Of a DNA stretch of 64,000 bases, positions 1-56,758 are shown one piece after another. A program made the position numbers and the translations under genes. The first letter of the stretch is position 1, and every line of letters starts with the position of its first letter. The stretch is from assembly GCA_011525685.1 (NCBI GenBank), contig WYBW01000049.1, forward strand, positions 40,280 through 104,279, in the 5' to 3' direction. The DNA is from Verrucomicrobiia bacterium (lineage in GTDB: Bacteria > Verrucomicrobiota > Verrucomicrobiia > Limisphaerales > JADLHS01). The notes below the pieces were generated by a model. That model saw only the letters and a program-made list of their open reading frames with translations, was not told where the DNA came from and searched no databases.

Positions 1-89
1 GTCCGTTCAACTTATTAACCCGACCTTCCTTCGAGCCTCAATCTCCACAAGGCGCTTCACAACATAGTCTTACGGTATTTACACGACGC

Positions 90-105
90 TGGCATGGCCA
101 CTGCA
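90..105 (+). promoter_or_regulatory. Candidate sigma-54 (-24/-12) promoter TGGCATGGCCACTGCA
   Basis: GG at 91-92 and GC at 103-104 have the canonical 12-nt register of TGGCAC-N5-TTGC. It lies about 38 nt upstream of the ATG at 143. An identical 16-mer recurs at 7644-7659. Confidence 0.6.
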
Positions 106-142
106 AAATGCCTGCTGACAGAGACGAACAGCAGTTGATGAC

Positions 143-487
143 ATGAACATGATCCAAAACAAACCGAACCTCAGAGCCGTAACCCAGGGAGAGTTCGCGT
201 CGGCAGTCTTGCAGTCGGGCAAACCGGTTCTGGTGGTGTTCTTCGCGACGTGGAGCCGCCCGTGCCAGGTCTTGGAGGCCACGCTGAACGAGGTAGTGAC
301 CGCCTGCGACGGGCAAGCAGCGTTCTTAAAAATCAATGCCGACGATCACCCCGACCTCAGTCTTTGCTACGACATCCAATCCGTTCCGACGTTGCTCTAT
401 TTCGTTGGCGGACATGTGCGGGCCAGAGTCGTCGGCACGGTGTCCAAAGAAGCCATTCTCGCCAAACTGAATTTGCTCAACCCATGA
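143..487 (+). CDS. Thioredoxin-fold protein with a monothiol W-S-R-P-C site in place of W-C-G-P-C
   Basis: The 114-aa protein contains VVFFATWSRPCQVLEATL, aligning to the Trx active-site region, and the cis-Pro motif SVPTLLYF. The first (nucleophilic) Cys is replaced by Ser. Confidence 0.85.
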   Translation: MNMIQNKPNLRAVTQGEFASAVLQSGKPVLVVFFATWSRPCQVLEATLNEVVTACDGQAAFLKINADDHPDLSLCYDIQSVPTLLYFVGGHVRARVVGTVSKEAILAKLNLLNP

Positions 488-618
488 AGATACCAAATCA
501 CTCTTACCACCCAAAGGCGCTGGGCGCGCCGACTTTCGCTACAGCGGTTGCTGCGTCGCGATCCTGCCTGAGTTCCTGCCCGACTCCCCGCGCGCCCAGC
601 GCCTCTTCTTTTGCCGGT

Positions 619-722
619 GGAGCGCGGGCTTTAGCCCGCTTCAACGTCCGTAAGGCGAGAGACAATAGTCTTTCATATCTGCTGGCGTTTTGGGAGTTGA
701 AGCGGCGTGAACGCCGCGCCCC
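619..722. repeat. Palindromic repeat element, family G (GGAGCGCGGGCTTyAGCCCGCTTCAAC arms)
   Basis: The left arm at 619-645 is a roughly 75% reverse complement of the right arm at 696-722. A second copy lies at 28994-29104 and shares the internal GACAAT..CTTTCA core. Confidence 0.6.
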
Positions 723-1818
723 GCTCGCACTCGCGGTGGTCGCCGCGCTTACTGCGGCGCTGGCGTTCACCGGCTGCGAGAAGCCCGAGGCCAAAGCCCC
801 CGAGAAAAGTCTGGTGCGCACCGCGGTCGTCGAGCCGGCGGGCAATGGCCGTTCCGACAGCGAGGCGGCCTATCTCGCGGCGGTGAAGTTCGACCGCGAA
901 ACGGATCTCAATTTCAAGGTCGGCGGGATCGTGGTCCTCATTGGACCGGCCGCCAACGCGGATTGGGACGAGGCGACGCCGGTCAAGATCGGGGCGCTGC
1001 TGGCCGAGTTGAAGCAATCGGATTTTGAGAACGCGTTGAGCGCGGCGCGTGCGAAGGCGGACCTGGCCGACAAGACGCGCGAGCGTTTCCGGAAACTCCG
1101 CGAGACGGACGCCATTTCGCAGCAAGAACTCGATGTCGTCGAGGCCGAGTGGCGCACAGCGCAGGCGGCGCTGGATCAGGCGCAGCACAATCTGCGCGAC
1201 TCGCGATTGGTGGCGGACAAGAACGGCGTGATCCTGAGGCGCTACATCAACCGCGGCGTCACGGTTGCACCCGGCCAGCCGGTGCTGCGCTTCGCCGACA
1301 CGAGTCTGATGTCCGTCGAGTTGGGCCTGCCGGATCGGTTGATTGGCAAGGTGACGCCCGGCCAGGAGATTGATGTCGAGATTTCGGCGTTGGAGGGCCT
1401 GAAGCCTTTCAAGGGCACTGTTACGGAAGTCGGCGTGGCGGCGAGTGCTGAAGGCCGATTGTTCCGCGTCGTAATCAAAGTGCCGAATCCGGAAGGGCAG
1501 TTGCGTTCGGGCATGACCGCGCGCATTCGCGTCGGCGACGCGGCCGCGACGCCGGGCACAGTCACCATTCCGCTCTCGGCGCTGGTGACGCTGGTGTCCG
1601 AAGGCGGCTCGCATGGCAACCCGCAAACGCAACTCGGCGTCTTCGTCGTCCAGGACGGCAAAGTGGTGAAGCGCGCGGTGAAGACCGGCGACATCATCAA
1701 GAGTTCCATTCTCGTGACCGAAGGATTGCGGGCGGGGGAACAGGTCGTCACATCGGGAGCCAGTTTTCTTTACGACGGCGCGCCGGTCGAAGTCGCCCCC
1801 GAACTGACCACCAAGTAA
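697..1818 (+). CDS. RND efflux periplasmic adaptor (membrane fusion protein), predicted lipoprotein
   Basis: It has HlyD/MFP-like coiled-coil and beta-barrel segments (QQELDVVEAEWRTAQAALDQAQ, GQPVLRFADTSLMSVELGLPD). From the TTG at 697 the N-terminus reads KRRERRAPLALAVVAALTAALAFTGC, a signal peptide plus lipobox. The start is uncertain: an in-frame ATG at 484 is possible, and the track ORF start at 250 overlaps the trx gene. Confidence 0.8.
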   Translation: MKRRERRAPLALAVVAALTAALAFTGCEKPEAKAPEKSLVRTAVVEPAGNGRSDSEAAYLAAVKFDRETDLNFKVGGIVVLIGPAANADWDEATPVKIGALLAELKQSDFENALSAARAKADLADKTRERFRKLRETDAISQQELDVVEAEWRTAQAALDQAQHNLRDSRLVADKNGVILRRYINRGVTVAPGQPVLRFADTSLMSVELGLPDRLIGKVTPGQEIDVEISALEGLKPFKGTVTEVGVAASAEGRLFRVVIKVPNPEGQLRSGMTARIRVGDAAATPGTVTIPLSALVTLVSEGGSHGNPQTQLGVFVVQDGKVVKRAVKTGDIIKSSILVTEGLRAGEQVVTSGASFLYDGAPVEVAPELTTK

Positions 1819-1846
1819 CGCAGGATAATCCAGGAGAACCATTCCC

Positions 1847-4800
1847 ATGTCAGACCACGTTGAGAAAAAGACCGAGTCCGGTGTGGATGCGACGCCGAGC
1901 ACTTCAACCGTAGCGCAGACCTCCGAGTCTGCTGTATCGCAGGTTTCAAAACCTGCGGGCGCAACGAAGGGAGAAGCCCCCGAAAAATCTCAGCGCGATG
2001 CCGATTTGGAAATCGGCGATACAGCAGGTTTGGAAACCTGCGCTACGAAAAAGCCCGCAGCTCACGTTGAAAACAAGAAGGAGTCCGGTGGCATCGCTCA
2101 GTTCTTTGTCGAGCATCGGGAGGTGAGCTGGCTGGCGCTGATCGCCGTGCTGGTGTGGGGCGTGGTGGCCTACACCAAGCTGGGCCAGCAGGAAGACCCC
2201 ACGATTCCCCAGCGCACCGCGATGCTGGTGACGATCTTCCCCGGCGCGACCGCCTCGAAGGTCGAGGAACTGGTCGCGAAGCCGCTCGAACGCAAGATCA
2301 GCGAGCTGGATTCCATCGAGGAGATCAAGACGACGGTCCGGCCCGGCGTCGTCACGATGAACATCAAACAGCTTCCCGCGCCGAAGCCGACGATCGACCA
2401 GCAGTGGGACAAGGTCCGGTCCAAGATCGCCGAAGTGCAGTTGCCCGACGGCACGCGGCAGCCGTGGCTCAACACGGATTTTGGCAACACGATCACGCTG
2501 CTATATGCGCTGGTCAGCCCGCCAATCACCGAGGCGGAGTGCGTGGCGCGGGCCAACCTGCTGCGGGACCGCCTGGCCGACCTCCGCGCCGGAGCGCCTT
2601 CCACCCATCGCGCCGCCGTGGCGGCCTGGCTGCCCGGCATGGACGCGAAAGCCCTCGAGACGCTCCGCGGCCGGTTCGAGGTGGCAATCCAGGCGGCCGG
2701 TCTCGCCAAAGCCGTGCGCACTACTCAGGGTCACTCGTTCATCCTGGCCGACCTGGAAACCACCGCCAGCCGCGGCGATCTGGAGAAGTTCATCGCCGAG
2801 TTCACCCGAACGTTCACGGGCACCGATCGTGAACTGTATCATCCCGATTTCACCCAGCCGATCGTGTTGATGGGCGATGAAGACCCGTTGCCGCAAATCC
2901 GCGCCACGGCCCCGCCGCGTTACAGCTATCGCACGCTCGAGTTGCTGGCGCGCGATTTCGAGGACGAACTCAAGCAGGTCGAGAGCGTCGGCAAAGTCAC
3001 CAAGGTCGCCATCGTGGAGGAAGCGGTGTATCTGCTTTACTCGGACGCCGACCTGGCCGGCTACGGCCTGACGCCGGAAGGCGTGATGTTCTCGATCAAC
3101 GCGCGCAACGCGGTGATTCCCGGCGGCACAATGCGCACCGAAGGCCGCAATTTCCCCGTGCAGCTTTCCGGCGAATACAAGACCGAGAACGACATGCTCG
3201 GGACGGTGGTGGGCATGGGACGCGGCGGCGCGCCGGTGTATCTGCGCGATGTCTTCGAAGTCCGCCGGATGTATGAGTCGCCCATTTCCTACAAGGTGGA
3301 TGTGCTCGGACGCGACAATGTAGCGCAGGTTTCCAAACCTGCTGTGTCGCCGACTTCCAAGTCGGCAGCGCGTGGGAAGATCGAGCGGTCAGCGGATTTG
3401 GAAATCCGCGATACAGCAGACTTGGAAGTCCGCGCTACGACGGAAAGCTCGCCGCTCGACACGCGCCGCGCCGTCATGGTCGCCGTCGAGATGCGCGAGG
3501 GAAAGATCATCCGCCATTTCAACGAGGACGTGACGAGGTTGGTGGACCGGATGAAGGCGCGCACCCCCGAGGGCATCGAGTTTCGGGTGTTGTCCGACCA
3601 ACCCTCGGCCGTGGATCATCGCATCAAGCACTTCATGAAGTGCTTCATGGAGGCGGTGATCATCGTGATCGTCGTCGCGCTGTTCATGATGGATTGGCGC
3701 TCGGCGCTGGTGCTGGCCACCGCGATTCCCGTGGGCGTCGCCATGACGTTCGTGGGCATGCAGGTGCTGGGCATTCCCCTGCAACAAATCTCCATCGCCG
3801 CGCTCATCATCGCGCTGGGTCTGCTGGTGGACGTGCCGGTGGTCGCCTCCGATGGCATCAACCGCGAGCTGTATCGGAAGGAGCCGCGGTTGCGCGCGGC
3901 CTGGCTGGGGCCGCTGCGTCTGCGGCATCCCATGGTGTTCGGCACCCTGACCTGCGTCTTCTCGTTCCTGCCGCTGCTGATGCTCTACGGCGACAAGGGC
4001 GAGTTCATGAAGAGCATGCCGACGGTGGTGACCATGGCGCTGCTCTCGGCGTTGCTGGTGTCCAACACCTTCCTGCCGCTCATCAGCTACTACGTGCTGC
4101 GCGGGCAGAAAGGGTTCGATGAAGGCGGCGAGGTGCGTTCGTTCTTCCTGTTCGGGCTGGTGGATCGGGCGCTCCTGGCGCTGTTGCCGATCTACCAAAA
4201 GGCCCTGCGGGGCGCGCTCAAGCGACCGTATCTCGTTCTGGGCGTCGCCTACGCGGTGCTGGCGCTGGTCCTCGTCTTTGTGTTCCCGCGATTGGGCAGC
4301 CAGTTCTTCCCGCCGGCCGAGCGCAATCAACTGCTGGTGGACATCGAAACGCCTTCGAGCGATTCGCTGACCAGCACGCGCGCGGCGATGGATCAAGTGG
4401 TAACCATTATCAAGCAGCACGAGGAAGTGGCCAGCGCGGCGGTGTTCTCCGGCGGCACGGCCCCGCGTTTCTATTACAACGTCGAACCCAAGGCACCGGC
4501 CAATTACCTCGGGCAAATTCTCATCAACACGCGCCACGCGGACGAGGTGGACGGCCTGATCGTCAAACTGCGCAAGGAACTGGACTCTTCCGTGCCCGGA
4601 GTGCGCTGCGTCGTCAAGCCGCTCGAGCAAGGTCCGCCCATCAACGAACCGATCCAAATCCGCCTCAGCGGCGAGAACCTGGACAAGCTGCGCCTCCTCG
4701 CCGATCAGGTTGCGACCGAACTGCGCGCGGCGGGCGGCTATCACGTGCATGACGACCTCGGCCTGCGCATGCCCAGTCTCCAGATTGACATTGATCAGGA

Positions 4801-5707
4801 CCGCGCGAATTCACTCGGCTTGAACAACCGGCAGATTGGCGGCGTGGCCCTCTCCTCCTTTGCCGGTTTGCAGGTGACGGAACTGCGCGAAAAGGACCGG
4901 CTCATCCCCGTGTTGGTGCGCGGTCGCATCGAAGACCGCAGCGAGGTGGAGAAGATTCGCGCGCTCTACGCGCCGACGCCCGACGGGAAGAGCGTTCCCT
5001 TCGAGAGCTTCGCCAAGGTGACCGTGCAGCCCGAGTTCGTCCGGATTCCGCACTACAACCAACTTCGCACCGTCACCGTCAAGGCCTACGCGCCGTTCGG
5101 CGAACTGGCGTCGCAGGTGCTCGACCGCGCGCGCCCGGGCCTGGCGAAGATCAAACTCGAACCGGGTTACGAATTGAAGTTCGCCGGCGAGGACGAGGAA
5201 CTGCGCAAGAGCAAGGCGGAGATGATGGTCATCCTGATGGTCTGCCTGGCGCTGATCGTTGGCACGCTGGTGCTGCAATTCAAGTCGGTCGTCAAGGCGG
5301 CGACAGTCATGCTGACAGCGCCGCTGGTGCTCATCGCCTCGATCATCGGCCTCTTTGTCACCAACTCACCCTTCGGGTTCATGGCCATGCTGGCGGTGAT
5401 CAGCCTGATTGGCGTGCTCGTGTGCAACATGATCGTGCTCAGCGAACAGATCGAGCACTCGCGCGAACAGGGGCTGCCGTTGGAGGAGGCGCTGGTGAAG
5501 TCCGGCCTGTCCCGGTTGCGCCCGGTGCTGATGACGGTCCTGGCCGTGTCCGGCGGCCTGGTGCCGCTGTTCTTTGCCGGCGGCGCGCTGTGGCATCCGC
5601 TGACGGCGGTTCACATCTTCGGCCTGCTCTTCGCCCCGGTGCTGACGTTGGGGATGTTGCCGACGATGTACTATGTCTTCTGCGCCAAACTGAAGTTAAT
5701 CAAGTAA
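1847..5707 (+). CDS. RND efflux permease (AcrB/HAE-type inner-membrane pump), 1286 aa, carrying two in-frame repeat insertions
   Basis: Length, twelve hydrophobic segments in a 1+5 / 1+5 arrangement, and AcrB-like periplasmic domains. AGGAGA lies 8 nt upstream of the ATG. The gene sits between adaptor and outer-membrane factor genes. Confidence 0.95.
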   Translation: MSDHVEKKTESGVDATPSTSTVAQTSESAVSQVSKPAGATKGEAPEKSQRDADLEIGDTAGLETCATKKPAAHVENKKESGGIAQFFVEHREVSWLALIAVLVWGVVAYTKLGQQEDPTIPQRTAMLVTIFPGATASKVEELVAKPLERKISELDSIEEIKTTVRPGVVTMNIKQLPAPKPTIDQQWDKVRSKIAEVQLPDGTRQPWLNTDFGNTITLLYALVSPPITEAECVARANLLRDRLADLRAGAPSTHRAAVAAWLPGMDAKALETLRGRFEVAIQAAGLAKAVRTTQGHSFILADLETTASRGDLEKFIAEFTRTFTGTDRELYHPDFTQPIVLMGDEDPLPQIRATAPPRYSYRTLELLARDFEDELKQVESVGKVTKVAIVEEAVYLLYSDADLAGYGLTPEGVMFSINARNAVIPGGTMRTEGRNFPVQLSGEYKTENDMLGTVVGMGRGGAPVYLRDVFEVRRMYESPISYKVDVLGRDNVAQVSKPAVSPTSKSAARGKIERSADLEIRDTADLEVRATTESSPLDTRRAVMVAVEMREGKIIRHFNEDVTRLVDRMKARTPEGIEFRVLSDQPSAVDHRIKHFMKCFMEAVIIVIVVALFMMDWRSALVLATAIPVGVAMTFVGMQVLGIPLQQISIAALIIALGLLVDVPVVASDGINRELYRKEPRLRAAWLGPLRLRHPMVFGTLTCVFSFLPLLMLYGDKGEFMKSMPTVVTMALLSALLVSNTFLPLISYYVLRGQKGFDEGGEVRSFFLFGLVDRALLALLPIYQKALRGALKRPYLVLGVAYAVLALVLVFVFPRLGSQFFPPAERNQLLVDIETPSSDSLTSTRAAMDQVVTIIKQHEEVASAAVFSGGTAPRFYYNVEPKAPANYLGQILINTRHADEVDGLIVKLRKELDSSVPGVRCVVKPLEQGPPINEPIQIRLSGENLDKLRLLADQVATELRAAGGYHVHDDLGLRMPSLQIDIDQDRANSLGLNNRQIGGVALSSFAGLQVTELREKDRLIPVLVRGRIEDRSEVEKIRALYAPTPDGKSVPFESFAKVTVQPEFVRIPHYNQLRTVTVKAYAPFGELASQVLDRARPGLAKIKLEPGYELKFAGEDEELRKSKAEMMVILMVCLALIVGTLVLQFKSVVKAATVMLTAPLVLIASIIGLFVTNSPFGFMAMLAVISLIGVLVCNMIVLSEQIEHSREQGLPLEEALVKSGLSRLRPVLMTVLAVSGGLVPLFFAGGALWHPLTAVHIFGLLFAPVLTLGMLPTMYYVFCAKLKLIK
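1910..2046. repeat. Palindromic repeat element, family A (GTAGCGCAG...CTGCGCTAC termini, GGTTTGGAAACCTG-type hairpins)
   Basis: Terminal inverted repeats GTAGCGCAG / CTGCGCTAC and internal hairpins (GCCGATTTGGAAATCGGC, CAGGTTTGGAAACCTG). It lies inside the RND ORF and is translated as ..VAQTSESAVSQVSKPAG..ADLEIGDTAGLETCAT.. Confidence 0.7.
3320..3438. repeat. Palindromic repeat element, family A, second copy inside the RND pump gene
   Basis: GTAGCGCAGGTTTCCAAACCTGCTG ... CAGCAGACTTGGAAGTCCGCGCTAC. It is translated in frame as NVAQVSKPAVSPTSKSAARGKIERSADLEIRDTADLEVRAT. Confidence 0.7.
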
Positions 5708-5717
5708 TCATCACATT

Positions 5718-7169
5718 ATGCGCTCATCATTTCTGAAACTGTCGGTTGGTTGCGCCGCGCTGGCGCTGGCCGGGTGCGCCGTTGGCCCGAACTACAAACA
5801 ACCCGCGGTGAACACGCCGGCGGCGTTCCGGGGCGCGGCCAACGTTGATTCCACCAACTCGCTCGCCGACCTGCCGTGGTGGGGACTCTTCAAGGATCCG
5901 GCGCTCCAGGACTTGATCCACGTGGCCCTCACCAACAACTACGACCTGCAGATCACCCTCACGCGGGTGGATCAGGCGCGGGCGATTCAAGCGCAGGCGC
6001 GGTCGCAATTCCTGCCGCAAGTAGGCTACGGAGGTGAAGCCAATCGGGGCAAGAACGAGTATCTCGGCCTTCCCGCACCGAACGGCGGCCGAACCATGGA
6101 CAGCTACCTGGCCGGCCTCGGAGCGGTTTGGGAAATTGATCTTTGGGGCCGCGTGCGCCGGATGAGCGAAGCCGCCAAAGCCAACTTCATGGCCACGCAG
6201 GAAGGCCGGCGGGTGGTCATGACCTCGCTGGTCAGCGGCGTCGCCGCAGCCTACTTTGAGTTGCTGGAACTGGACGAGCAACTCGCCATTGCCCAGCGCA
6301 CGCGGGACTCCTACGAGCGGATGCTGAAACTGTTCTCCGACCAACATGCCGGCGGTCTGGCGTCGAAACTTGAGGTGTCCCGGGCCGAACTCGCGCTGCG
6401 TTCGGTTTCGGCCAACATCCCGGAGATTGAGCGCCAGATCGCGCTCAAAGAAAACGAAATCAACACGCTGCTGGGTCGCAACCCCGGCCCTATTGCCCGC
6501 ACCTCGACGCTGCTGGCGCAGGACTTGCCGGTCGAAATCCCGGTCGGTCTGCCGTCGAGTTTGCTGCAGCGCCGGCCCGACATCCGCGCCGCCGAGCAAC
6601 AAGTCCGGATGGCCAACGCGGAAATCGGCGTCGCCACCGCCGATTTCTTCCCGCGCATCGGTCTCACGACCTTTTACGGCGGCACCAGCACCGATCTCGA
6701 CAATCTGTTCAAGAGCGAGGCGAATGTCTGGTCCGCGGCGGCCAGCGCGGCCGGGCCGATCTTTACCGGCGGCCGGTTGACCGCCCACCGCCGGCAAGCC
6801 AAAGCCGCTTGGGAAGAAGCCAAACTGCATTACCAGCAGACCGCCCTCACCGCCTTCCGCGAGGTTTCCGATGCGCTCATCTCCCGCCGCCGGTTCGAAG
6901 AAAGCCGCAGCGAGCAAACGCAGGCCGTTGACGCCGGCCGTCAGGCTGTGGAACTGGCGACGACGCGCTTCAAAGAGGGCAAGGCGAGTTATTACGAGGT
7001 GCTCGAAGCGCAACAGCAACTCTACCCCGCCGAGAACACTCTCTCGCGCCTCGAAGTCGCCCGCCGCCTCGCCGTCATTCAACTCTACAAATCCCTCGGC
7101 GGCGGGTGGGAAACCGAGGCATCCGTGAACCCAGCCGCGCGGTCAGACGCGTCGTCTCAATCCAGGTAA
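5718..7169 (+). CDS. RND efflux outer-membrane factor lipoprotein (NodT/OprM family)
   Basis: Signal peptide with lipobox LALAGCAVGPNYKQP, typical of NodT. Two OEP-like repeats. It lies directly downstream of the pump gene. Confidence 0.9.
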   Translation: MRSSFLKLSVGCAALALAGCAVGPNYKQPAVNTPAAFRGAANVDSTNSLADLPWWGLFKDPALQDLIHVALTNNYDLQITLTRVDQARAIQAQARSQFLPQVGYGGEANRGKNEYLGLPAPNGGRTMDSYLAGLGAVWEIDLWGRVRRMSEAAKANFMATQEGRRVVMTSLVSGVAAAYFELLELDEQLAIAQRTRDSYERMLKLFSDQHAGGLASKLEVSRAELALRSVSANIPEIERQIALKENEINTLLGRNPGPIARTSTLLAQDLPVEIPVGLPSSLLQRRPDIRAAEQQVRMANAEIGVATADFFPRIGLTTFYGGTSTDLDNLFKSEANVWSAAASAAGPIFTGGRLTAHRRQAKAAWEEAKLHYQQTALTAFREVSDALISRRRFEESRSEQTQAVDAGRQAVELATTRFKEGKASYYEVLEAQQQLYPAENTLSRLEVARRLAVIQLYKSLGGGWETEASVNPAARSDASSQSR

Positions 7170-7279
7170 ACCGGAATCAAGCAGCCGTCTTCTTGAAGGG
7201 TTAAGAAACCGTCGTCGGGGATTTGGTTGTTGAGCAGAAATCCATCCCAGCGCGGCGGACGCCGCAAACACAGGTTTTA

Positions 7280-7373
7280 TGGAGTGCGGCGGGAAGCGAA
7301 GCGCCACGCCGCTTTTGGAAAAGGATGACCGGGGGAAAGCGGTGTCGCCGCTGCGCTCTGCCACCGCACTCCA
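7280..7373. repeat. Palindromic repeat element, family B (TGGAGTGCGGCGG ... CCACCGCACTCCA)
   Basis: A 94-bp element with near-perfect terminal inverted repeats. It lies in the intergenic region after the efflux operon. Confidence 0.7.
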
Positions 7374-7554
7374 AGTTTTTGGCGCGGTTCAACGAGTCTC
7401 AGCAACGACTGCTCTTGCGATTGCTCCCGGGCAAACTCCAAGAGTAATTGCGTCGCAAAAAGCGAATCGGACCGTCGGTCGTTCGTTGGTTTCATACAAC
7501 AAGAGGCTGCCAGATCGCGGACAAATAATCCGACCAAACCTGGCTCAAGTTTTT

Positions 7555-7800
7555 GTCCGTTCAACTTTTTAACCCAACCACCCTCCGGGGCCTAATCTCT
7601 GCAAGACAATTCAAAACAGGCTCTTACGGCATTTCAACCTCGTTGGCATGGCCACTGCAAAATGCCTGCTGATAGAAGCGAATAGTAGTTGATGACATGA
7701 ACACGAGCCAAAACAACTCAAGCATCCGATTCGTCGGCCAAGCCGATTTCGCGTCGGAAACCCTGCAAGTCGGACAAACCAGTTCTGGCGGTGTTCACGG
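7555..7800 (+). other. Duplicated copy of the window-start module (upstream box, sigma-54 promoter, leader hairpin, 5' end of the thioredoxin ORF)
   Basis: It aligns by eye to 1-245. GTCCGTTCAACTTwTTAACCC matches at 20/21 positions. TGGCATGGCCACTGCAAAATGCCTGCTGA is identical over 29/29 nt. The flanking and coding parts are about 70% identical. Homology ends just before the Trx active site. Confidence 0.8.
7644..7659 (+). promoter_or_regulatory. Candidate sigma-54 (-24/-12) promoter, second copy
   Basis: The 16-mer TGGCATGGCCACTGCA is identical to 90-105 and has the same spacing to the ATG at 7697. Confidence 0.6.
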
Positions 7801-8422
7801 CGAGCTACCCCCTATGACCATGAAACACACTATGACAACCACGCCTCAAACTCTAACCATTGACATCCTCACGGAAGACGGATCGCGCACGCGGTTCGTG
7901 CAGCCGGACGAGGCCAGCGCGAAAAGAACGTTGCGCCAGTTGGTGTCACCGCGGCTCTTTACTCCGCCCCTGCTTACGTTGGCTTCCGAGCACAGCACGA
8001 GCGCCATTCCCACCCGGACCATTGATGTCATCCTGGCCCACACGGCATCGCCGCCTCCGTTGCCGTTGCCCAGCGGGTGGGTGGATGCGGTTGAAGTCAC
8101 CGACGAGGCGTTGACGCCGCTTGAGACCCTGCGTGCGGCCGCCGCGGCGGAAGGCAGGCATGTGATGCTGGCGGAAGTTCATACACTGGGAGATTGGATG
8201 ATCCGCTTGAAGCTGGAAACCATCCTTCCGGCGACGATCCAGGAAGAGCGCCATCTTTGGAACCATTTTTTGGATTTACCTGCGATTCCGTTTCGTTTGC
8301 AGGCGGGCGGCCTGGGCGCCATCAATCCCGCGAATATCGTGCGCGCGACCGTTTGTCCGCCGGTTGACGGAGCCGCGGAGGCGGCGCTGTCGGCGGATTT
8401 GCTGGAAAGCCTTCGGCCCTGA
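7697..8422 (+). CDS. Uncharacterised protein A, paralog of the 10935-11615 product, with a chimeric 5' end derived from the thioredoxin gene
   Basis: The ORF is intact. Residues 1-33 (MNTSQNNSSIRFVGQADFASETLQVGQ) parallel the Trx N-terminus. An extra base near 7780 then shifts the frame relative to trx. The conserved paralog region starts near MTMKHTMTT (alternative starts at 7814, 7820 and 7832). Confidence 0.6.
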   Translation: MNTSQNNSSIRFVGQADFASETLQVGQTSSGGVHGELPPMTMKHTMTTTPQTLTIDILTEDGSRTRFVQPDEASAKRTLRQLVSPRLFTPPLLTLASEHSTSAIPTRTIDVILAHTASPPPLPLPSGWVDAVEVTDEALTPLETLRAAAAAEGRHVMLAEVHTLGDWMIRLKLETILPATIQEERHLWNHFLDLPAIPFRLQAGGLGAINPANIVRATVCPPVDGAAEAALSADLLESLRP

Positions 8423-8437: not shown

Positions 8438-9097
8438 ATGAACGACATCATCGCTTTCACCATTGCCTACGGCGGATTGATCCTGTTCCTGGCCGGTTTC
8501 GCGGAGCAGAGTGGCCTGCCGTTTCCGGGATCGCTGGTCGTCATTGCGGGGGGCGCCCTCGCGGCGGGCGGGAAGTTTGATCTGCTGGCGGTCGTCGGCT
8601 GGACGGCCCTCGGCTGCATCACGGCCGACGCGATCTTGTTCGTTCTCGGAGGCCGCGGCCAGGCGCGCGTGTTCCGGGTGTTTCCCTATTTGCAAACGGT
8701 GCGGGTCAAGCTGGAGCGCGCCACACTCGCCCGGACCCTCCTGCACGGCCTGCGAATGCTCACGGTGGCGAAGTTTGTGCCCTTCGGCCAGGTCGTGGCG
8801 ATGCACGCCGGCGCGTTGCACGTGAGCCGGCGGCGCTTCCTGCTGGTGGATGCGTTCAGTGCGGTGGTTTACGCGGCGGTGTATGCCGCCTTGGGTTATG
8901 CGTTCCACGATCAATTGGAACAGGTCGTGGCCTTCCTGCACCAGCTCGGTACGGTCGCGTGGGTCGGTCTCGCGCTGCTTGCCGGAACCTACGGCGTTTA
9001 TCGTTTGCTCAAGCGCGGTCGCAAAACGGCGACCGCCAACCCCGACCATGCGGAGGAGTCCAAAGCCGAAGGAAACCTATGTCTTCCCTGTTCATAA
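8438..9097 (+). CDS. DedA/SNARE-associated family membrane protein
   Basis: The N-terminal motif FAEQSGLPFPGSLVVIAGGALA and multiple hydrophobic segments are typical of DedA. Confidence 0.85.
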   Translation: MNDIIAFTIAYGGLILFLAGFAEQSGLPFPGSLVVIAGGALAAGGKFDLLAVVGWTALGCITADAILFVLGGRGQARVFRVFPYLQTVRVKLERATLARTLLHGLRMLTVAKFVPFGQVVAMHAGALHVSRRRFLLVDAFSAVVYAAVYAALGYAFHDQLEQVVAFLHQLGTVAWVGLALLAGTYGVYRLLKRGRKTATANPDHAEESKAEGNLCLPCS

Positions 9098-9630
9098 TTT
9101 CCGCACTCTATGTTGGCGTTGTTTTTCTGTCAGGCTACGAACCTCATGACAGGGCGGATTTCGAATGTGTAACGCACTGATTCGGAGACAGCGGTATGAT
9201 CACACACCATCGAAACAACGGCCAGCAGTTCACAACGGAGCGGCGCTTGAACGTGCATCCATGGACGGAGGATTCTGAGCGACGCCGGCGCGACCATGGG
9301 AGCGACAGCGCCCCGCGCCGCCCGGGGTCCGGACGCCTGCATTGGGAGATGCTCCTGATCTGGGCCTTTGTGGTTTTCAGCTTTGCGGCGAGCTTCTTCT
9401 GCCTTTGGGCCATCTCCGCGAAATGCAATGGCGACTGGCCTCTCTGAGCTTCGCGGCGCCATTGGGAATCCTGAGTTAACCCTACCATGAATGTCCGAAG
9501 ATTCATCCCCAGGTCAGAAGCGAAGGCGAACCGACATTGTGGCCTCGCGTGCGGTCAGCGCAGCGAGCGTTGCCCTCTCAATCCGCTAATCGTCTAACCA
9601 GCACACCCAACGACTGAAAGGATTTCGTTG

Positions 9631-10047
9631 ATGTCATACTCCATAAATCCAGTTGGCGAAGACCGGTGCGTCTTCCTGTCCTACGAAGGCGAGGTGCCGG
9701 CCGTGGAGTTGTCCGCCGCCCGTTACGAGGCGGACGCCCTCTTGGACCAACGGCAATGGCACCGCCTCATCGTGGACGTCACGCAGTTGCAGTCAATGCC
9801 CCGGACGGCAGAACTGATTGACTTTGCCGGCGGGTTATCCGCGACCGTCTCCCGGGCCAGGCGGGTGGGACTGGTGGTCCGCCCCGAGCAGGACCGTCTG
9901 GCCCGGCTCATTCAAAAGGTCGCCCGCCGCGGGCGGTTGTTCCTCACCTCCTTTCTGGACCCGGCCAAGGCGATCCGTTGGGTGAAGCAATCCACACCCG
10001 CCAGGCAAAATTTGGGGAGCATCCGGAAGGAGCAACTGGCATCATGA
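9631..10047 (+). CDS. STAS/SpoIIAA-like domain protein
   Basis: The pattern is CVFLSYEGEVPAVEL...WHRLIVDVTQLQSMP...RVGLVVRPEQ...FLD. AAAGGA lies upstream of the ATG. The family assignment rests on pattern only. Confidence 0.6.
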   Translation: MSYSINPVGEDRCVFLSYEGEVPAVELSAARYEADALLDQRQWHRLIVDVTQLQSMPRTAELIDFAGGLSATVSRARRVGLVVRPEQDRLARLIQKVARRGRLFLTSFLDPAKAIRWVKQSTPARQNLGSIRKEQLAS

Positions 10048-10507
10048 CGCAGCTCACCCAAGCCTTGTCGCGGGGCAGCCAGACCCTCCTGCCCGTGACC
10101 CGATGGGAATGTGTCCGATTTGCGCCCGCAATCCAAGGGACGCGAGTCCAGTCCCCTTTTGTTTCGCCGATCTGCTTCCGGCCTCGCTCGGAAGCGCACG
10201 TCACCGAACGCGAGGTTGTATTCGGACGACGCGTCCCGTCGTTTCACCGGATCGGACGATTTCGCGCGGGTTCATGCTTCCGCGCGATCGTAAAAACACC
10301 CGCAAACTCATGACGAAATGAAAATTCGCGAGAGAAACCCATGCGGCACCGCCAAGCCAGCGACCCGCGTCCGACCGTTCCGGGCACGCGGCGAGAATTG
10401 TATCCGCCGCCTGATCGAAGCCGCCAGCGCCGCGCGGGCGGGGGCCGCTCAGATGACCTTGGGTGACTGGCGTGACCTGGAGATGGAAGTGCAACGGAGA
10501 CTCCAAC

Positions 10508-10954
10508 ATGAAATCAAAAAATCTCCAAGCTGATCCCAGGGCCTACGCACAATCCTTGAACAGGGTCCCCGTGTGCCGGCGGCGCATGGCAAACACGGAC
10601 GGGTTTCCCCCCGTGGATGTGTCCGATACGGGCGAAGAGTACTTGTTCGAGTTCGACTTGCCGGGCCTGAAGCTGGATGACCTCCAGATCAGTCGCGATG
10701 ACGCGACGCTGTATCTCGAGGGCGAGCGCCCGACCCGGCGGTGCGGCGGACAAAGTCTGCGATCCGAGCGCCCGGCCGGGGTCTTCGCGCGCCGACTGCC
10801 CCAGCCGGCGGATGCTTGCGCCGACGAGATTCACGCGATCCTGCAAGACGGAGTTTTGGAACTGCACGTTCCCCGGAGGCTGCCGCCGGATGAAAACGGC
10901 AGGTCAAACATCATCCCATTCAAGGAGACACATTATGAACACACCCACAGTTGA
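10508..10954 (+). CDS. Hsp20/alpha-crystallin small heat-shock protein
   Basis: Alpha-crystallin domain: PPVDVSDTGEEYLFEFDLPGLKLDDLQISRDDATLYLEGER...RSERPAGVFARRLPQPAD...AILQDGVLELHVPR. GGAGA lies 8 nt upstream of the ATG at 10508. An alternative start is at 10586. Confidence 0.85.
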   Translation: MKSKNLQADPRAYAQSLNRVPVCRRRMANTDGFPPVDVSDTGEEYLFEFDLPGLKLDDLQISRDDATLYLEGERPTRRCGGQSLRSERPAGVFARRLPQPADACADEIHAILQDGVLELHVPRRLPPDENGRSNIIPFKETHYEHTHS

Positions 10955-11615
10955 CATGACTGCAAACCCAATTGACCTCACTCTCGAGCTTCGTGCCGCG
11001 AACGGATCCTCGACGGAATTCTATGAGTCCGATGAGGACCGCGTCCGCGAAGCGCTCCGACTGCTGGCGGCGCCGCAGTTGTTCGCCCAGGACCACCTGC
11101 TGCTGGCCTCGCAGCACGGCGCCAGCATGATTCCATGCAAGGGCATTGACATGATCCTCGTCCGCACCTTCGCGCGCGCGCCCCTGAAATTCCCGCTGAA
11201 TCTCCCCCAGGGCCGGTTTGACATCGTGGAACGGCCGGAAGCCTGGCCGGACAAAACATCGGTGGCAACGGATGGTCCGGGTGGGCCGCCGCCCGGCCAG
11301 CCGCGCCGGCGCAGCTTGCAGGTGGAGATCCATACGCTCGGCGGCTGGACGGTCACCCTGAAAGCGGTGGCGATGATTCGCGGAAATTCCCAGGACGAGC
11401 GCCAGTTGTTCGCGCATTTGCCGGAGGTGCCGACTCTTCCCTTCCGTCTGGAGGAAGGCGGCTTCGGCCTCATCAACACCGCCAACATCATCCGTGCGCA
11501 CGCCTGGCCCAAACCCGCGGCGCTCCCCGGCATCGTGCTGCCCCTTGCCTTGCGCCGATGGACTCCGTCGCGTGTCCACAATCCGGCGAATCTCTCTGAG
11601 GTAACTTCATCATGA
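10935..11615 (+). CDS. Uncharacterised protein B, paralog of protein A, with an apparent internal duplication
   Basis: Two blocks are about 40-45% identical by eye to protein A (LASQHGASMIPCKGIDMILVRT; EIHTLGGWTVTLK...PFRLEEGGFGLINTANIIRAHAWP). AAGGAG lies 7 nt upstream. The start overlaps the hsp20 end by 20 nt. Confidence 0.7.
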   Translation: MNTPTVDMTANPIDLTLELRAANGSSTEFYESDEDRVREALRLLAAPQLFAQDHLLLASQHGASMIPCKGIDMILVRTFARAPLKFPLNLPQGRFDIVERPEAWPDKTSVATDGPGGPPPGQPRRRSLQVEIHTLGGWTVTLKAVAMIRGNSQDERQLFAHLPEVPTLPFRLEEGGFGLINTANIIRAHAWPKPAALPGIVLPLALRRWTPSRVHNPANLSEVTSS

Positions 11616-12103
11616 AAATGACCGCTCAGGAATCCCGGTATTCCGCACCGGGGAATAAATGTTTCCCCACCCGCCTGATTCGCACGTTTCTGGCGGAGGA
11701 CTCTCCCATGCTCATGGTGTTGCTGGCCAGAATCGTCTCCAAGGACGAGCGGGTTTTCATCGTTGGCTCGGCGGTGGATGGCCTCAAAGCCGTCGGCCAT
11801 GCACCAGCGCTTCATCCGGATTTGGTCATCACGGACCTGCACATGCCCGGGTTGGACGGCGCGGCAGTCACACGCCGTCTGAAACAACTGCCGAACCCAC
11901 CCATTGTTTTCGTGGTCACCGGCGACGACACCCCGGAAGCCCTCGGCAGGTGTCTGGCCGCCGGCGCCGACACATTCCTGGTGAAGACCGGGAATCTCGT
12001 CCCGCGGCTGCGCTCCGCCATCCAGGAGTTTTTTCCCGGCGATCCCGAACCAAACGACCTCGAACCCAAACACGATCGTGAAACCCTCACCACAGTCGCA
12101 TAA
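11612..12103 (+). CDS. Stand-alone CheY-like response-regulator receiver protein
   Basis: Receiver motifs: FLAEDS, the phospho-acceptor context LVITDLHMPGLDG, VVTG and FLVKT. No output domain. An ATGA overlap links it to the upstream gene. Confidence 0.85.
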   Translation: MKMTAQESRYSAPGNKCFPTRLIRTFLAEDSPMLMVLLARIVSKDERVFIVGSAVDGLKAVGHAPALHPDLVITDLHMPGLDGAAVTRRLKQLPNPPIVFVVTGDDTPEALGRCLAAGADTFLVKTGNLVPRLRSAIQEFFPGDPEPNDLEPKHDRETLTTVA

Positions 12104-12155
12104 AGCCGCGCCTGCCGCCGACGGGAACTCGAACCTCTTGGGACGCCGTGGCGAA

Positions 12156-12365
12156 ATGCACCAGACGTGCGCGCAGTGTCATGCGACCATTTTGGACGGC
12201 CAGTGGTTTTGTCGGTTGCCCGGGAACGAGCTGCCGACGTTGCTTTGTTCCTCGTCCTGCGCGCTTCGCTACTTCGACCGTTCCCACACACAAAGCAATG
12301 GCTGGGACAAGCTTTGGGACGCGCACGAACACCGGTTTGGCTCTTTCATGAAAGGAGAGTTGTGA
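12156..12365 (+). CDS. Small TRASH-type zinc-ribbon protein
   Basis: CAQC-x22-CSSSC fits the TRASH consensus C-X2-C-X19-22-C-X3-C and is followed by ALRYF. An alternative GTG start at 12078 would overlap the receiver gene. Confidence 0.6.
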   Translation: MHQTCAQCHATILDGQWFCRLPGNELPTLLCSSSCALRYFDRSHTQSNGWDKLWDAHEHRFGSFMKGEL

Positions 12366-13759
12366 TCTTGAAGCGTATTCCTTCAGTTCTAATCACTCTG
12401 CTGCTCGTCAGCGGTTGCGCCCACTATCCGCGCAACGCCCGGTTGACCAGGAGCGAGCCTGCCGCCGGCTATCGGTTTCGTCCCACCACCTCGCCCACCA
12501 ATTCCTCCGACCTGCTCCTGATGCTGGCTTTCTCCGGCGGCGGCACCCGCGCCGCCGCTTTGGCTTACGGAGTGTTGGAGGAACTGGCGCGCACGCCTTT
12601 GGGCGCGGAGGCAACCCAACACCGGATGCTCGATGAGGTGGACATCATCTCCTCCGTGTCCGGCGGCAGTTTCACCGCCGCGTACTACGCCCGGTGGGGC
12701 GACCGCATTTTCTTGGACTTCGAATCTGAGTTTCTCAAGAAGAACGTCCAGAACGCTCTGCTGCTCCGCGTTCTGTCGCCTTGGAATCAAGTCCGGCTGG
12801 CTTCGCCCAAATTCAATCGGACCGACCTGGCGGCGGAGTATTATGATCGCCGGCTGTTCCAAGGGGCGACGTATGCAGAGTTGCCGGGCGACCGTCCCTT
12901 TCTCTGTATCAATGCCACGGACACCGCCTCCGGCGCACGGTTCGAGTTCACCCAGGACCAATTCGATCTGCTGCAGTCGGACTTGGGACCATTCCCAATC
13001 GCGCGGGCGGTGGCCGCCTCCTCGGCGTTTCCCGTGCTCCTGACGCCGGTGGTTTTGAAGAACTATTCTGCTGAACATCCCCGACCTGAACCGGAGTGGA
13101 TCACCTCCATCCTGGACAGCCCAACCGCCTCCACTCGCCTCAAATATCTGGCGGCCCAGGCCCGCTCTTACGGAGACGCGGACCGACGGTTCATCCATCT
13201 GCTCGATGGCGGAATCTCCGACAATCTCGGCTTGCGGGGTGCCCTGGATCGGGTGATCGCCCGCGAACAGTTTGCCGAAATTCCCAGTGTGCCGTGGCAG
13301 CTTCCCCGCCGCGTGGCGATTGTCGTCGTCAACGCGCACAAGGACTCCGATTACGGCTGGGACTCCCAAGAAAGCCCGTTGAGCCGGGTCAAGTTGTTCA
13401 GCTCGCTCAGCCACGTGGCGGTGAGTCATTATTCCTTCGAGACCCTCGAATTGTTCCGCGAAGTCATGGCACGCCTGGGGCAGGAGTACACCGGCACGGG
13501 CGATTCCGCGCCGGCCGCAGTCGTCCCCTATGTCATCGAACTGCACTTCAATCAATTGGCCGATGCGTCCGACCGCCGCTTCTTCAATTCCGTGCCCACG
13601 ACGTTCGCGCTCCCGTCCAAGACGGTGGATCGCCTGCGTCAATTAGCCGCTCGCGAACTCGCCGATAACGCGGAATTCCGACGATTGGTCAGCGACCTCG
13701 GGGGCCAGCCAGATGCAACGAATTTACCTGCCCGCCTTTCCCCACCCACCACGGAATAA
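12362..13759 (+). CDS. Patatin-like phospholipase, predicted lipoprotein
   Basis: From the GTG at 12362 the N-terminus reads ILKRIPSVLITLLLVSGC (lipobox). Oxyanion motif FSGGGTRAAA, nucleophile elbow VSGGS, and Asp motif LLDGGISDNLG. A GTGA overlap links it to the TRASH gene. Confidence 0.85.
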   Translation: MILKRIPSVLITLLLVSGCAHYPRNARLTRSEPAAGYRFRPTTSPTNSSDLLLMLAFSGGGTRAAALAYGVLEELARTPLGAEATQHRMLDEVDIISSVSGGSFTAAYYARWGDRIFLDFESEFLKKNVQNALLLRVLSPWNQVRLASPKFNRTDLAAEYYDRRLFQGATYAELPGDRPFLCINATDTASGARFEFTQDQFDLLQSDLGPFPIARAVAASSAFPVLLTPVVLKNYSAEHPRPEPEWITSILDSPTASTRLKYLAAQARSYGDADRRFIHLLDGGISDNLGLRGALDRVIAREQFAEIPSVPWQLPRRVAIVVVNAHKDSDYGWDSQESPLSRVKLFSSLSHVAVSHYSFETLELFREVMARLGQEYTGTGDSAPAAVVPYVIELHFNQLADASDRRFFNSVPTTFALPSKTVDRLRQLAARELADNAEFRRLVSDLGGQPDATNLPARLSPPTTE

Positions 13760-13767
13760 ATCCATTT

Positions 13768-28993: not shown

Positions 28994-29104
28994 CATGGAG
29001 CGCGGGCTTCAGCCCGCTTCAACTTCGCAAATGGAAGGACACGGAACGATGACAATCTCACCTTTCACTCGCGCGGCGAAGCGGCATGAACGCCGCGCTC
29101 CATG
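28994..29104. repeat. Palindromic repeat element, family G, second copy
   Basis: CATGGAGCGCGGGCTTCAGCCCGCTTCAAC ... GAAGCGGCATGAACGCCGCGCTCCATG. It fills the gap between the L7Ae-like and DEAD-box genes. Confidence 0.65.
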
Positions 29105-39711: not shown

Positions 39712-39845
39712 GTAGCGCAGGATTCCATCCTGCTGGATCGCGGGTTTCCAACCGGCGAACCGTTGCCAGCGGCGGCGTTTGCGTGCGTTGGGTCGGTCTG
39801 CCGAGTGGAATTCGGCGATACGGCAGGTTGGGATGACTGCGCTAC
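39712..39845. repeat. Palindromic repeat element, family A, intergenic copy
   Basis: GTAGCGCAGGATTCCATCCTGCTG ... GCCGAGTGGAATTCGGCGATACGGCAGGTTGGGATGACTGCGCTAC. Confidence 0.65.
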
Positions 39846-39917
39846 CAACCAGCAGTTGCGGCGACTGGGTGGTTGCGTCCAGATGCGCTAAACATCGCGT
39901 TCGCACGGCGCTCGAGT

Positions 39918-55957: not shown

Positions 55958-56758
55958 ATGATTCATCCGACTGCCATCATTCACCCGAAAGCGAGGCTCG
56001 ATGCCAGCGTGCGGGTCGGTCCTTATGCGGTGATTGACGAGGGTGTGGAGGTGGGCGCGCACTGCGTCATCGGGCCACATGTTTACGTGACAGGTTTGAC
56101 CACCATTGGCACGCACAATTGCTTTCACGCCGGCTGCGTGATGGGCGACGCGCCCCAGGACGTGAAATACACCGACGCGCCCACCGGCCTGCGCATCGGC
56201 GATCACAACCGGTTTCGCGAGCACGTCACGGTGCATCGCTCCAGCAAGCCCGGCGAATGGACGGTCATCGGCTCGCACAACTTCCTCATGGCCGGCAGCC
56301 ACGTGGCGCACAACTGCCACCTGGGCGACTACGTGATCCTGGCCAACGGCGCCCTGCTTGGCGGGCACGCGAGTGTGGCTGACGGCGCGTTCATTTCCGG
56401 CCACTGCCTGGTGCACCAATTCACACGGGTGGGGACACTGGCGATCATGCAGGGCGGGGCCGGCGTCAGCAAGGACGTGCCACCCTTCACCATCGCCATG
56501 GGTGTGAACATGATTTGCGGTTTGAACACGGTGGGCCTGCGGCGTGCCGGGCACGCGGCGGAAGCGCGCCTGGAACTGAAACAGCTTTATCACCTTTTGT
56601 TTCGGGGCGATCAAAACCTGCGTCACGCGGTCGCCGCGGCCCGCGAGAAGTTTTTCAGCGCAACGGCCCGGGAGATGATCGAGTTCGTGGCCGCAGCCAA
56701 ACGGGGTGTCTGCGCCGATGTCAGCCGCGTGAATCCGCAGGGTGACGATGCGGGTTGA
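55958..56758 (+). CDS. lpxA: Acyl-ACP--UDP-N-acetylglucosamine O-acyltransferase
   Basis: N-terminal MIHPTAIIHPKARLD, left-handed beta-helix hexapeptide repeats, and a C-terminal helical domain with GLNTVGLRRAG. Confidence 0.9.
   Translation: MIHPTAIIHPKARLDASVRVGPYAVIDEGVEVGAHCVIGPHVYVTGLTTIGTHNCFHAGCVMGDAPQDVKYTDAPTGLRIGDHNRFREHVTVHRSSKPGEWTVIGSHNFLMAGSHVAHNCHLGDYVILANGALLGGHASVADGAFISGHCLVHQFTRVGTLAIMQGGAGVSKDVPPFTIAMGVNMICGLNTVGLRRAGHAAEARLELKQLYHLLFRGDQNLRHAVAAAREKFFSATAREMIEFVAAAKRGVCADVSRVNPQGDDAG

Follow-up and report, generated by a model that had tools for sequence, protein, structure and literature searches.

A predicted sigma-54-dependent operon led by a thioredoxin-fold gene without the nucleophilic cysteine in a Verrucomicrobiia genome

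Described sigma-54 systems and the present locus

Sigma-54 promoters require an enhancer-binding ATPase. In the phage-shock system of Escherichia coli, PspF-pspABCDE, the sigma-54 activator is encoded divergently from its operon, and there is an upstream site, a bend of the integration host factor (IHF) type and a small cytoplasmic first product. To our knowledge, sigma-54 control is poorly charted outside the Proteobacteria, and gene regulation in soil and freshwater Verrucomicrobiota is almost unexplored experimentally. PspF has been listed as a membrane-stress activator (PMC3162934). FisR is described as a cysteine-dependent, sulfide/persulfide-responsive sigma-54 activator of Cupriavidus and Acinetobacter (PMC7315123, citing Li et al. 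2017 Mol Microbiol 105:373). Sigma-54 regulons have been reported in the Verrucomicrobiota, and the cross-phylum survey that includes them does not mention a thioredoxin (PMC12316311). Here we describe a 64,000 nt stretch of DNA (the window) from a Verrucomicrobiia bacterium (Limisphaerales; JADLHS01), assembly GCA_011525685.1, contig WYBW01000049.1, positions 40,280-104,279 of the forward strand. Positions 1-7169 of the window are probably the target operon of a divergently encoded sigma-54-dependent activator. The operon is led by a gene, here called trx, for a thioredoxin-fold protein with SxxC in place of the CxxC active site, and continues with the genes of a tripartite resistance-nodulation-division (RND) efflux system (Table 1). 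The proposed mechanism also includes a partnership between the trx product and the activator, a part that we hold much more tentatively.

The locus resembles the Psp system in having an activator divergent from its operon, an upstream site, an IHF-type bend, a small cytoplasmic lead protein and a theme of envelope stress. PspF has no sensor domain, but in the activator encoded next to the window a four-cysteine loop is set into a GAF domain. The lead gene encodes a thioredoxin fold and not the PspA/IM30 coiled coil. The locus did not qualify as a Psp member, and the likeness is architectural only. FisR is likewise a sigma-54 activator divergent from its operon, with a theme of thiol-based detoxification, and the cysteines of the regulatory domain of the Cupriavidus protein contribute to sensing (PMC7315123). 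The two differ in cargo, compared by description: FisR controls sqr, pdo and tauE and not efflux or envelope genes, and no thioredoxin-like lead gene is reported for it (PMC7315123).

The promoter, the activator and the box are of a known kind; by architecture the nearest analogue is pspF-pspA, and by thiol sensing it is FisR. The conserved single-domain SxxC thioredoxin-fold lead gene, together with an activator that has a cysteine-loop GAF domain, is apparently undescribed. Our literature searches found no description of the activator-trx(SxxC)-cargo arrangement, and a preliminary description of this DNA, made from the letters alone, knew of no account of an inducible efflux operon led by such a gene. 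The locus offers a complete predicted cis-regulatory map, with an activator box, a bend, a promoter and a predicted start of transcription. Many genomes of the phylum carry the cassette, frequently more than once, and in them it would drive genes for efflux, lipid A and phospholipid asymmetry, DedA and small heat-shock proteins.

Comparisons were made across 80 loci (given L numbers below) from one scan of species-representative genomes. Nearly all are from metagenome-assembled genomes (MAGs) of Verrucomicrobiota, and counts across loci are not phylogenetically independent. The multi-copy cassette is specific to the Verrucomicrobiota, barring a few loci labelled as other phyla, e.g., Ca. Manganitrophus. 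Verrucomicrobial gene order also occurs under the labels Bifidobacteriaceae, Acidoferrum, Limnocylindrales, Thiobacillaceae and Hyphomicrobiales, and mis-binned contigs in the source MAGs are probable. One locus, L001, is an assembly contig identical to the window, trx gene included, that reaches 1385 nt upstream of window position 1.

Promoter, upstream box and divergent activator

The sequence TGGCATGGCCACTGCA ahead of trx has the GG-N10-GC register that the preliminary description had noticed at 90-105. It differs from the sigma-54 consensus TGGCAC-N5-TTGCW at two positions, both non-core. Position weight matrices (PWMs) for the promoter and for the upstream box were built from homologous loci, with the window left out. 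Scoring of positions 60-120 with a sigma-54 matrix had been proposed earlier. The family PWM gives 21.9 bits at position 88 and, over the 64 kb, 22.2 bits at 7642 in a second, decayed copy of the module (copy B, see below); the next best site is far lower, at 10.6 bits. In 20 shuffles, the mean maximum was 14.1 bits and the overall maximum 19.4 bits.

The motif is a family feature. TGGCAY is present in 75/82 related upstream regions, 15-90 nt before the start codon and mostly at -44 to -53, and three further loci have CGGCAT in its place. When the sequences were aligned on TGGCAY, the non-anchor columns +12 to +14 were T in 72/74, G in 74/74 and C in 58/74, and the position after TGC was C in only 10/74. 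The six spacer positions between the elements vary freely across the alignment (TGGCAY-N6-TGC). The motif is asymmetric, non-palindromic and always oriented towards the gene. A subgroup of promoters (L017, L020, L025, L039, L040, L043, L044, L045, L048, L052, L056, L073, L074) has TGT or TGA instead of TGC (T in 13/74) and retains the -24 TGGCAY and the upstream box; such a -12 element is unusual for sigma-54 promoters.

The sequence at 1-21 had been put forward in the preliminary description as a candidate activator site. It proved to be the right-hand part of a 29-nt family box, cut by the window edge, and the candidate is supported because this box is conserved and stands at a fixed distance from the promoter. 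The box was found in 76/81 related upstream regions. In 60 sequences the distance from the start of the box to the T of the downstream TGGCA is 96-98 nt; this distance was not used in the search and fits the spacing of upstream activator sites, roughly 80-150 bp from a sigma-54 promoter. The partial box in the window scores 17.7 bits against the family PWM. The only complete box in the window is at 7547 (26.4 bits), and the next best match is 10.9 bits. Judged from the sequence, we infer that the divergent activator is the candidate to bind the 29-nt box. Between box and promoter, 26/60 loci match the IHF consensus at 7/9 or more at one place, -31/-30 relative to the promoter; at control positions the average is 2.7.

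The enhancer-binding ATPase that, as the preliminary description pointed out, a sigma-54 promoter needs is encoded divergently just outside the window. The gene, seen on L001, has an AAA+ sigma-54-interaction domain (PF00158, E = 6.6e-73). We took Met15 of the frame as its start, as homologs consistently align from there, and counted in this way the activator and trx start codons are about 199 nt apart. Full-length orthologs of about 540 aa add a GAF_2 domain (weak, above threshold) and a Fis-type helix-turn-helix domain (HTH_8). The loop that contacts sigma-54 is GSFTGA in the lineage of the window, and of the 54 relatives compared, 27 have GAFTGA and 19 GSFTGA. The activator shares the domain order GAF-AAA+-HTH with NorR, FhlA and NifA, but these best NCBIfam matches all fall below their cut-offs (NorR 374 bits against 476, FhlA 372 against 830, NifA 357 against 529), and unlike these proteins the activator group of the window has a CxxC-x5-C-x5-C loop.

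The cysteine loop is an insertion in the GAF domain and is missing in a few relatives. In an alignment of 54 activators, each of its four cysteines reaches at least 96% conservation, and a fifth cysteine reaches 76%. A model of the sensor domain of a 75%-identical homolog has a GAF fold, with a mean predicted local distance difference test score (pLDDT) of 79.8, and places the loop between the second and third strands. A fold search of the domain against the PDB found only generic GAF neighbours, i.e., PtsP, the free methionine-R-sulfoxide reductase (fRMsr) and the Aquifex Nlh2 activator, none of which accounts for the cysteine loop. With this loop the domain may serve in thiol or metal sensing, which has also been proposed for FisR of Cupriavidus (PMC7315123).

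Several points weigh against the promoter call. The site carries two mismatches to the general consensus, and the bare TGGCAC-N5-TTGCW with two mismatches is at chance level, with 28 matches in the window against 35.7 expected. The IHF-like matches in the window are weak (6/9 and 7/9), and the one at the main promoter is the 6/9 match. The gene rpoN was not found in the 64-kb window, and no RpoN-box peptide appeared when 1.4 Mb of related loci were translated in all six frames, a result that is uninformative for the host genome. Promoter types of the Verrucomicrobiota are also poorly characterised. On these grounds TGGCA...TGC could be a chance match or the site of another protein, with the operon under an unrecognised sigma-70-type promoter. 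We regard this as very improbable, as the asymmetric -24 and -12 elements hold a fixed position in 75/82 sequences around a free spacer, the non-palindromic motif never points away from the gene, the box keeps its 96-98 nt, and the gene next door encodes an AAA+ sigma-54 activator. Neither a sigma-70-like promoter nor a terminator was detected on the + strand at 1-2200. Because the activator gene is adjacent, the family conserves the motif and the box lies upstream, 90-105 remains a strong sigma-54 promoter call despite the chance-level bare match, with transcription predicted to start near 116.

From the anatomy, the conservation and the gene linkage we propose the following sequence of events. 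On its inducing signal, the activator would bind the 29-bp box, whose last base is window position 21. The spacer is A/T-rich and has a weak IHF-like site; it would loop and let the activator reach RNA polymerase-sigma-54, which would be held closed on TGGCAT-N5-CTGCA. ATP hydrolysis would then open the promoter, and a transcript starting near 116 would cover trx(SxxC) and the genes for the adaptor, the RND pump and the outer-membrane factor.

A hairpin in the leader, also proposed in the preliminary description, was considered and rejected. The inverted repeat exists with its 5' arm at 112-117; the 3' arm had been placed at 128-133 and is actually at 129-134, and the fold is at chance level. 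In the main copy (copy A) it has -7.3 kcal/mol (z = -1.17), and 23/200 shuffles fold as well. In copy B z is about 0 and the hairpin of copy A is not retained as the best fold. For 64 leaders of the family z averages -0.24 (-0.09 when folding begins at the predicted start), and the hairpin is no family feature. The -12 C at 104 places the start near 116, so that the 5' arm straddles it and would stay mostly untranscribed. No Rfam family matches the leaders; the only matches are sub-threshold and lie on repeat hairpins.

A thioredoxin-fold family without the nucleophilic cysteine

The thioredoxin fold with W-S-R-P-C that the preliminary description had read in the first gene is confirmed by PF00085, and the motif occupies residues 37-41 (nt 251-265). 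Thioredoxins of the PDB align over trx residues 12-109 (thioredoxin 5-102; E = 1.7e-19), with WSRPC opposite WCGPC. As this alignment leaves no space for a signal peptide, the product is expected to be cytoplasmic. A thioredoxin with SxxC is unable to run the normal dithiol reduction cycle.

Among 120 trx homologs, Ser38 is found in 119, Cys41 and cis-Pro82 in all 120, and the exact motif WSRPC in 97. A second cysteine is at position 55 in 96/120, and many surface positions beyond the motif are nearly invariant. The preliminary description had allowed that orthologs might carry a normal CGPC site and that the serine might be a local mutation. Given Ser38 in 119/120 and Cys41 in 120/120, the loss of the nucleophile is instead an old, selected trait of the family. 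With SxxC throughout the family and the equivalent of the buried catalytic Asp26 of thioredoxin replaced by V, A or E, the protein is predicted to be incapable of the dithiol cycle. It scores 77.7 bits against the TIGR01068 equivalog, below the cut-off of 96.8, and lacks the CxxC active site of that family. When 1.84 billion cluster representatives were searched with a profile, 156 proteins reached E <= 1e-30. Among the 60 best single-domain matches, 48 have SxxC and 8 have CxxC.

TrxA is the nearest sequence match (PDB E about 1e-19) and shares the fold and the conserved cis-Pro. Unlike TrxA, the family has Ser for the nucleophilic Cys and the altered Asp26 position. CnoX/YbbN is also a thioredoxin fold in which SxxC occurs naturally; it has one more Cys after the motif and no disulfide-reductase activity. 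Unlike CnoX, which has a C-terminal tetratricopeptide repeat (TPR) domain, the trx product is a stand-alone domain without TPR, its extra Cys is 13 residues after the motif and not 24, and its gene is under predicted sigma-54 control. Leptospirillum TFP2 was rejected as a functional homolog, as it keeps CxxC (PMC11241051).

The gene neighbourhood ties trx to the activator. In 49/76 loci with enough upstream DNA, the gene immediately upstream of the trx homolog is a divergent activator gene. RND components are downstream of trx in 50/66 loci, and they belong to two RND types that are mutually only 22-25% identical. The pump-less loci carry genes for LpxR (4), MlaE with a STAS protein (4), DUF308 (4), Hsp20 (3), Usp (2), patatin (2) and DedA (2). 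The theme of the cargo is envelope and membrane stress, as would be expected from what is generally described for sigma-54 regulons (PMC3162934). Over all loci we counted 84 box-plus-promoter pairs, of which 20, including copy B of the window, have no trx behind them. An adjacent divergent activator is present at 39/63 promoters with trx vs 2/20 without (Fisher p = 6e-5, a value that ignores the shared ancestry of the loci). Two or three modules occur together in at least eight assemblies, and every such module has a trx of its own; in copy B the activator and trx were lost together while the promoter and cargo were kept. Because activator-linked promoters mostly carry trx, the cargo varies and each module owns its trx, the gene travels with the regulator and not with the pump.

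We tentatively propose that the trx product serves the cysteine-loop GAF activator as its dedicated partner in signalling, with Cys41 or Cys55 linking reversibly, either covalently or through a bridging metal, to the loop. It would act as a thiol-dependent partner of the cysteine-rich sensor domain, in feedback or as a co-sensor, as PspA does for PspF. From the likeness to Psp we infer a possible negative-feedback role. A role linked to the regulator is favoured because of the linkage pattern, the duplication of trx with each module and the many invariant surface positions. Apart from the shared ancestry behind the Fisher test, two observations speak against the partnership. The activators of L047 and L067 have no cysteine loop and trx is still adjacent, and one trx per regulon would equally suit a stress-protective holdase. 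In L085 the loop and trx are both missing, and the box and promoter are kept. Strict coupling of loop and trx was tried as an idea and gave a mixed result; as L047 and L067 keep trx without the loop, the two losses are not strictly coupled.

Nearly as plausible, and held just as tentatively, is a CnoX-like protective role, in which the trx product would be a cytoplasmic stress protectant co-induced with the envelope-repair and efflux genes, with the promoter and regulator unchanged. E. coli YbbN has SQHC and a downstream Cys, has no reductase activity and is a holdase that forms mixed disulfides (PMC10998233). The trx family has SxxC and its second Cys at 55 (96/120), Hsp20 and Usp genes are among the co-transcribed cargo, and a single copy per regulon would suffice for such a protein. 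However, the trx product has no TPR domain, is only 114 aa long and is nearest in sequence to classical thioredoxins and not to CnoX. A generic holdase also needs no duplication with each paralogous activator module in one genome, and the near-invariance of many surface positions besides the motif suggests a specific partner.

An efflux accessory is improbable. Such a protein might, for example, bind a thiol-reactive toxin or metal in the cytoplasm and hand it over to the transporter, and trx is indeed first in the operon with adaptor, pump and channel in 50/66 loci, with a stop codon that may overlap the adaptor start (ATGA). However, trx also leads the pump-less operons (LpxR, MlaE/STAS, DedA, Hsp20), the two RND types behind it are only 22-25% identical, and pumps of the window type occur behind the same kind of promoter without trx (L061, L081). 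The substrates of RND pumps come mainly from the periplasm and the membrane.

The family is a coherent set of thioredoxin folds without the nucleophilic Cys, and the partner that constantly accompanies it in genomes is a sigma-54 activator rich in cysteines. If the proposed partnership of the trx product with the activator is true, the pair would be a two-protein thiol-based sensor that adjusts the sigma-54 output of envelope and efflux genes in Verrucomicrobiota, an undescribed input mechanism for enhancer-binding proteins. If it is false, the cassette still shows cleanly how a stress regulon can be recognised from its sequence alone.

Efflux genes, the second copy and repeat elements

Table 1. 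Features of the window and their coordinates
Feature	Position	Strand	Evidence or remark
Right-hand 21 nt of the 29-nt candidate activator box; full box AATATTTTGTCCGTTCAACTTATTAACCC begins 8 nt before the window	1-21	+	Family consensus gatTTTTcGgACGTTCAATTTTTCGACCC
Weak IHF-like site CAACATAGTCTTA	60-72	+	6/9 specified positions of WATCAANNNNTTR; possible bend between box and promoter
Sigma-54-type promoter TGGCAT-N5-CTGCA, TGGCATGGCCACTGCA	90-105	+	-24 GG 91-92, -12 GC 103-104; predicted start about 116
trx, 114-aa single-domain thioredoxin fold, no signal peptide	143-487	+	PF00085, E = 2.7e-19
RND adaptor (membrane-fusion lipoprotein)	484-1818	+	TIGR01730, 190 bits vs cut-off 94.9; PF16576
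RND inner-membrane pump, 1286 aa, two in-frame repeat-derived insertions	1847-5707	+	PF00873, E = 3e-151
Outer-membrane efflux factor, NodT family	5718-7169	+	TIGR01845, 385 bits vs cut-off 210
Activator N-terminus remnant, about 35 codons, cut off beside the repeat at about 7270-7370	7393-7497	-	L001 1150-1780 vs window 7320-7950
Second, complete 29-nt activator box AAGTTTTTGTCCGTTCAACTTTTTAACCC	7547-7575	+	26.4 bits
Second sigma-54-type promoter	7644-7659	+	97 nt from box; 7644-7672 identical to 90-118 over 29 nt
Open frame: frameshifted trx remnant (about 35 codons, to about 7805) fused in frame to a function-unassigned gene	7697-8422	+	
DedA/VTT-family membrane protein, probable second gene of the copy-B transcript	8438-9097	+	PF09335, E = 1e-8

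The genes that the preliminary description had named as adaptor, pump and outer-membrane factor behind trx are identified as such by TIGR01730, PF00873 and TIGR01845, and the adjacency of adaptor, permease and outer-membrane factor genes defines a tripartite RND system. The start of the adaptor is uncertain. It is either ATG 484, which overlaps the trx stop as ATGA and is the gene call on L001, or TTG 697. The latter is more likely; it directly precedes a signal peptide ending in AFTGC. A start at TTG 697 would leave a 210-nt spacer between trx and the adaptor that contains a repeat hairpin. In eight other loci (L016, L022, L029, L030, L040, L045, L052, L056) an extra gene of 164-246 aa lies between trx and the adaptor, and it matches the membrane protein domain DUF4405 in two cases.

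The two insertions in the pump gene are at 1885-2070 and about 3300-3440 and are built from hairpin-repeat units of the window such as GCGGATTTGGAAATCCGCGATACAGCAGACTTGGAAGTCCGCGCTACGA, and the frame is open in both. The first follows codon 13 or so, and a near-duplicate of the stretch coding for the N-terminus flanks it. By the second, the periplasmic domain is 40 aa longer (VAQVSKPAVSPTSKSAARGKIERSADLEIRDTADLEVRATT); four orthologs at 72-78% identity are without it. The pump clade of the window (with L046, L049, L050 and L051) measures about 1175 aa and has about 120 extra residues in the N-terminal periplasmic region. The pumps behind trx in most other loci have about 1057 aa.

Copy B lies behind the outer-membrane factor gene. 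About 400 nt (7405-7805) are about 80% identical to copy A, from codon 35 of the activator gene across the intergenic region to codon 35 of trx; the alignment of L001 1150-1780 with window 7320-7950 has a mean column identity of 79%. The box of copy B equals that of copy A at 27/29 positions, and the most conserved stretch between the copies is the 29 nt that span the promoter. The trx remnant has a one-base insertion and is missing the WSRPC region. Homologs of the function-unassigned gene to which it is fused start near 7832, and for the reading frame 7832-8422 we found no Pfam, NCBIfam or PDB sequence match. This gene has a paralog at 10677-11615 that is likewise without a match in Pfam, NCBIfam or the PDB, and homologs of the two recur as cargo of sigma-54 modules in L035, L072, L073, L075 and L081.

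L035 and L075 are syntenic with window 8438-16254 and have an intact activator-trx pair, directly followed by the DedA ortholog, where the window holds only the remnant. Since copy B is the remnant of a pair that is intact in these two loci, the genome of the window is predicted to have one activator-trx pair and two promoters of the same type. The box and promoter at 7547-7659 would be the leftover of a paralogous module and would put the function-unassigned gene and dedA under the same control.

Other pairs of box and promoter without trx precede a TetR gene and a pump of the window type (L035, L061) or the adaptor directly (L081). They also precede genes for squalene-hopene-cyclase-like proteins, a response regulator and a sigma-70-family protein. 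These trx-less pairs hint at a wider regulon with hopanoid synthesis and a regulatory cascade. The cyclase-type targets are at L040 2868, L043 5420 and L052 5421, the response regulator at L025 5554 and the sigma-70-type gene at L084 8391.

Short G+C-rich hairpin repeats, similar to repetitive extragenic palindromic (REP) elements, are found in intergenic spacers of the window at 618-648, 7270-7370, 28996-29026, 39799-39847 and 56598-56622. Compared with Rfam, they gave only sub-threshold matches that resemble microRNA precursors. One of these repeats is located in the spacer between trx and the adaptor, and another abuts the left edge of the copy-B remnant.

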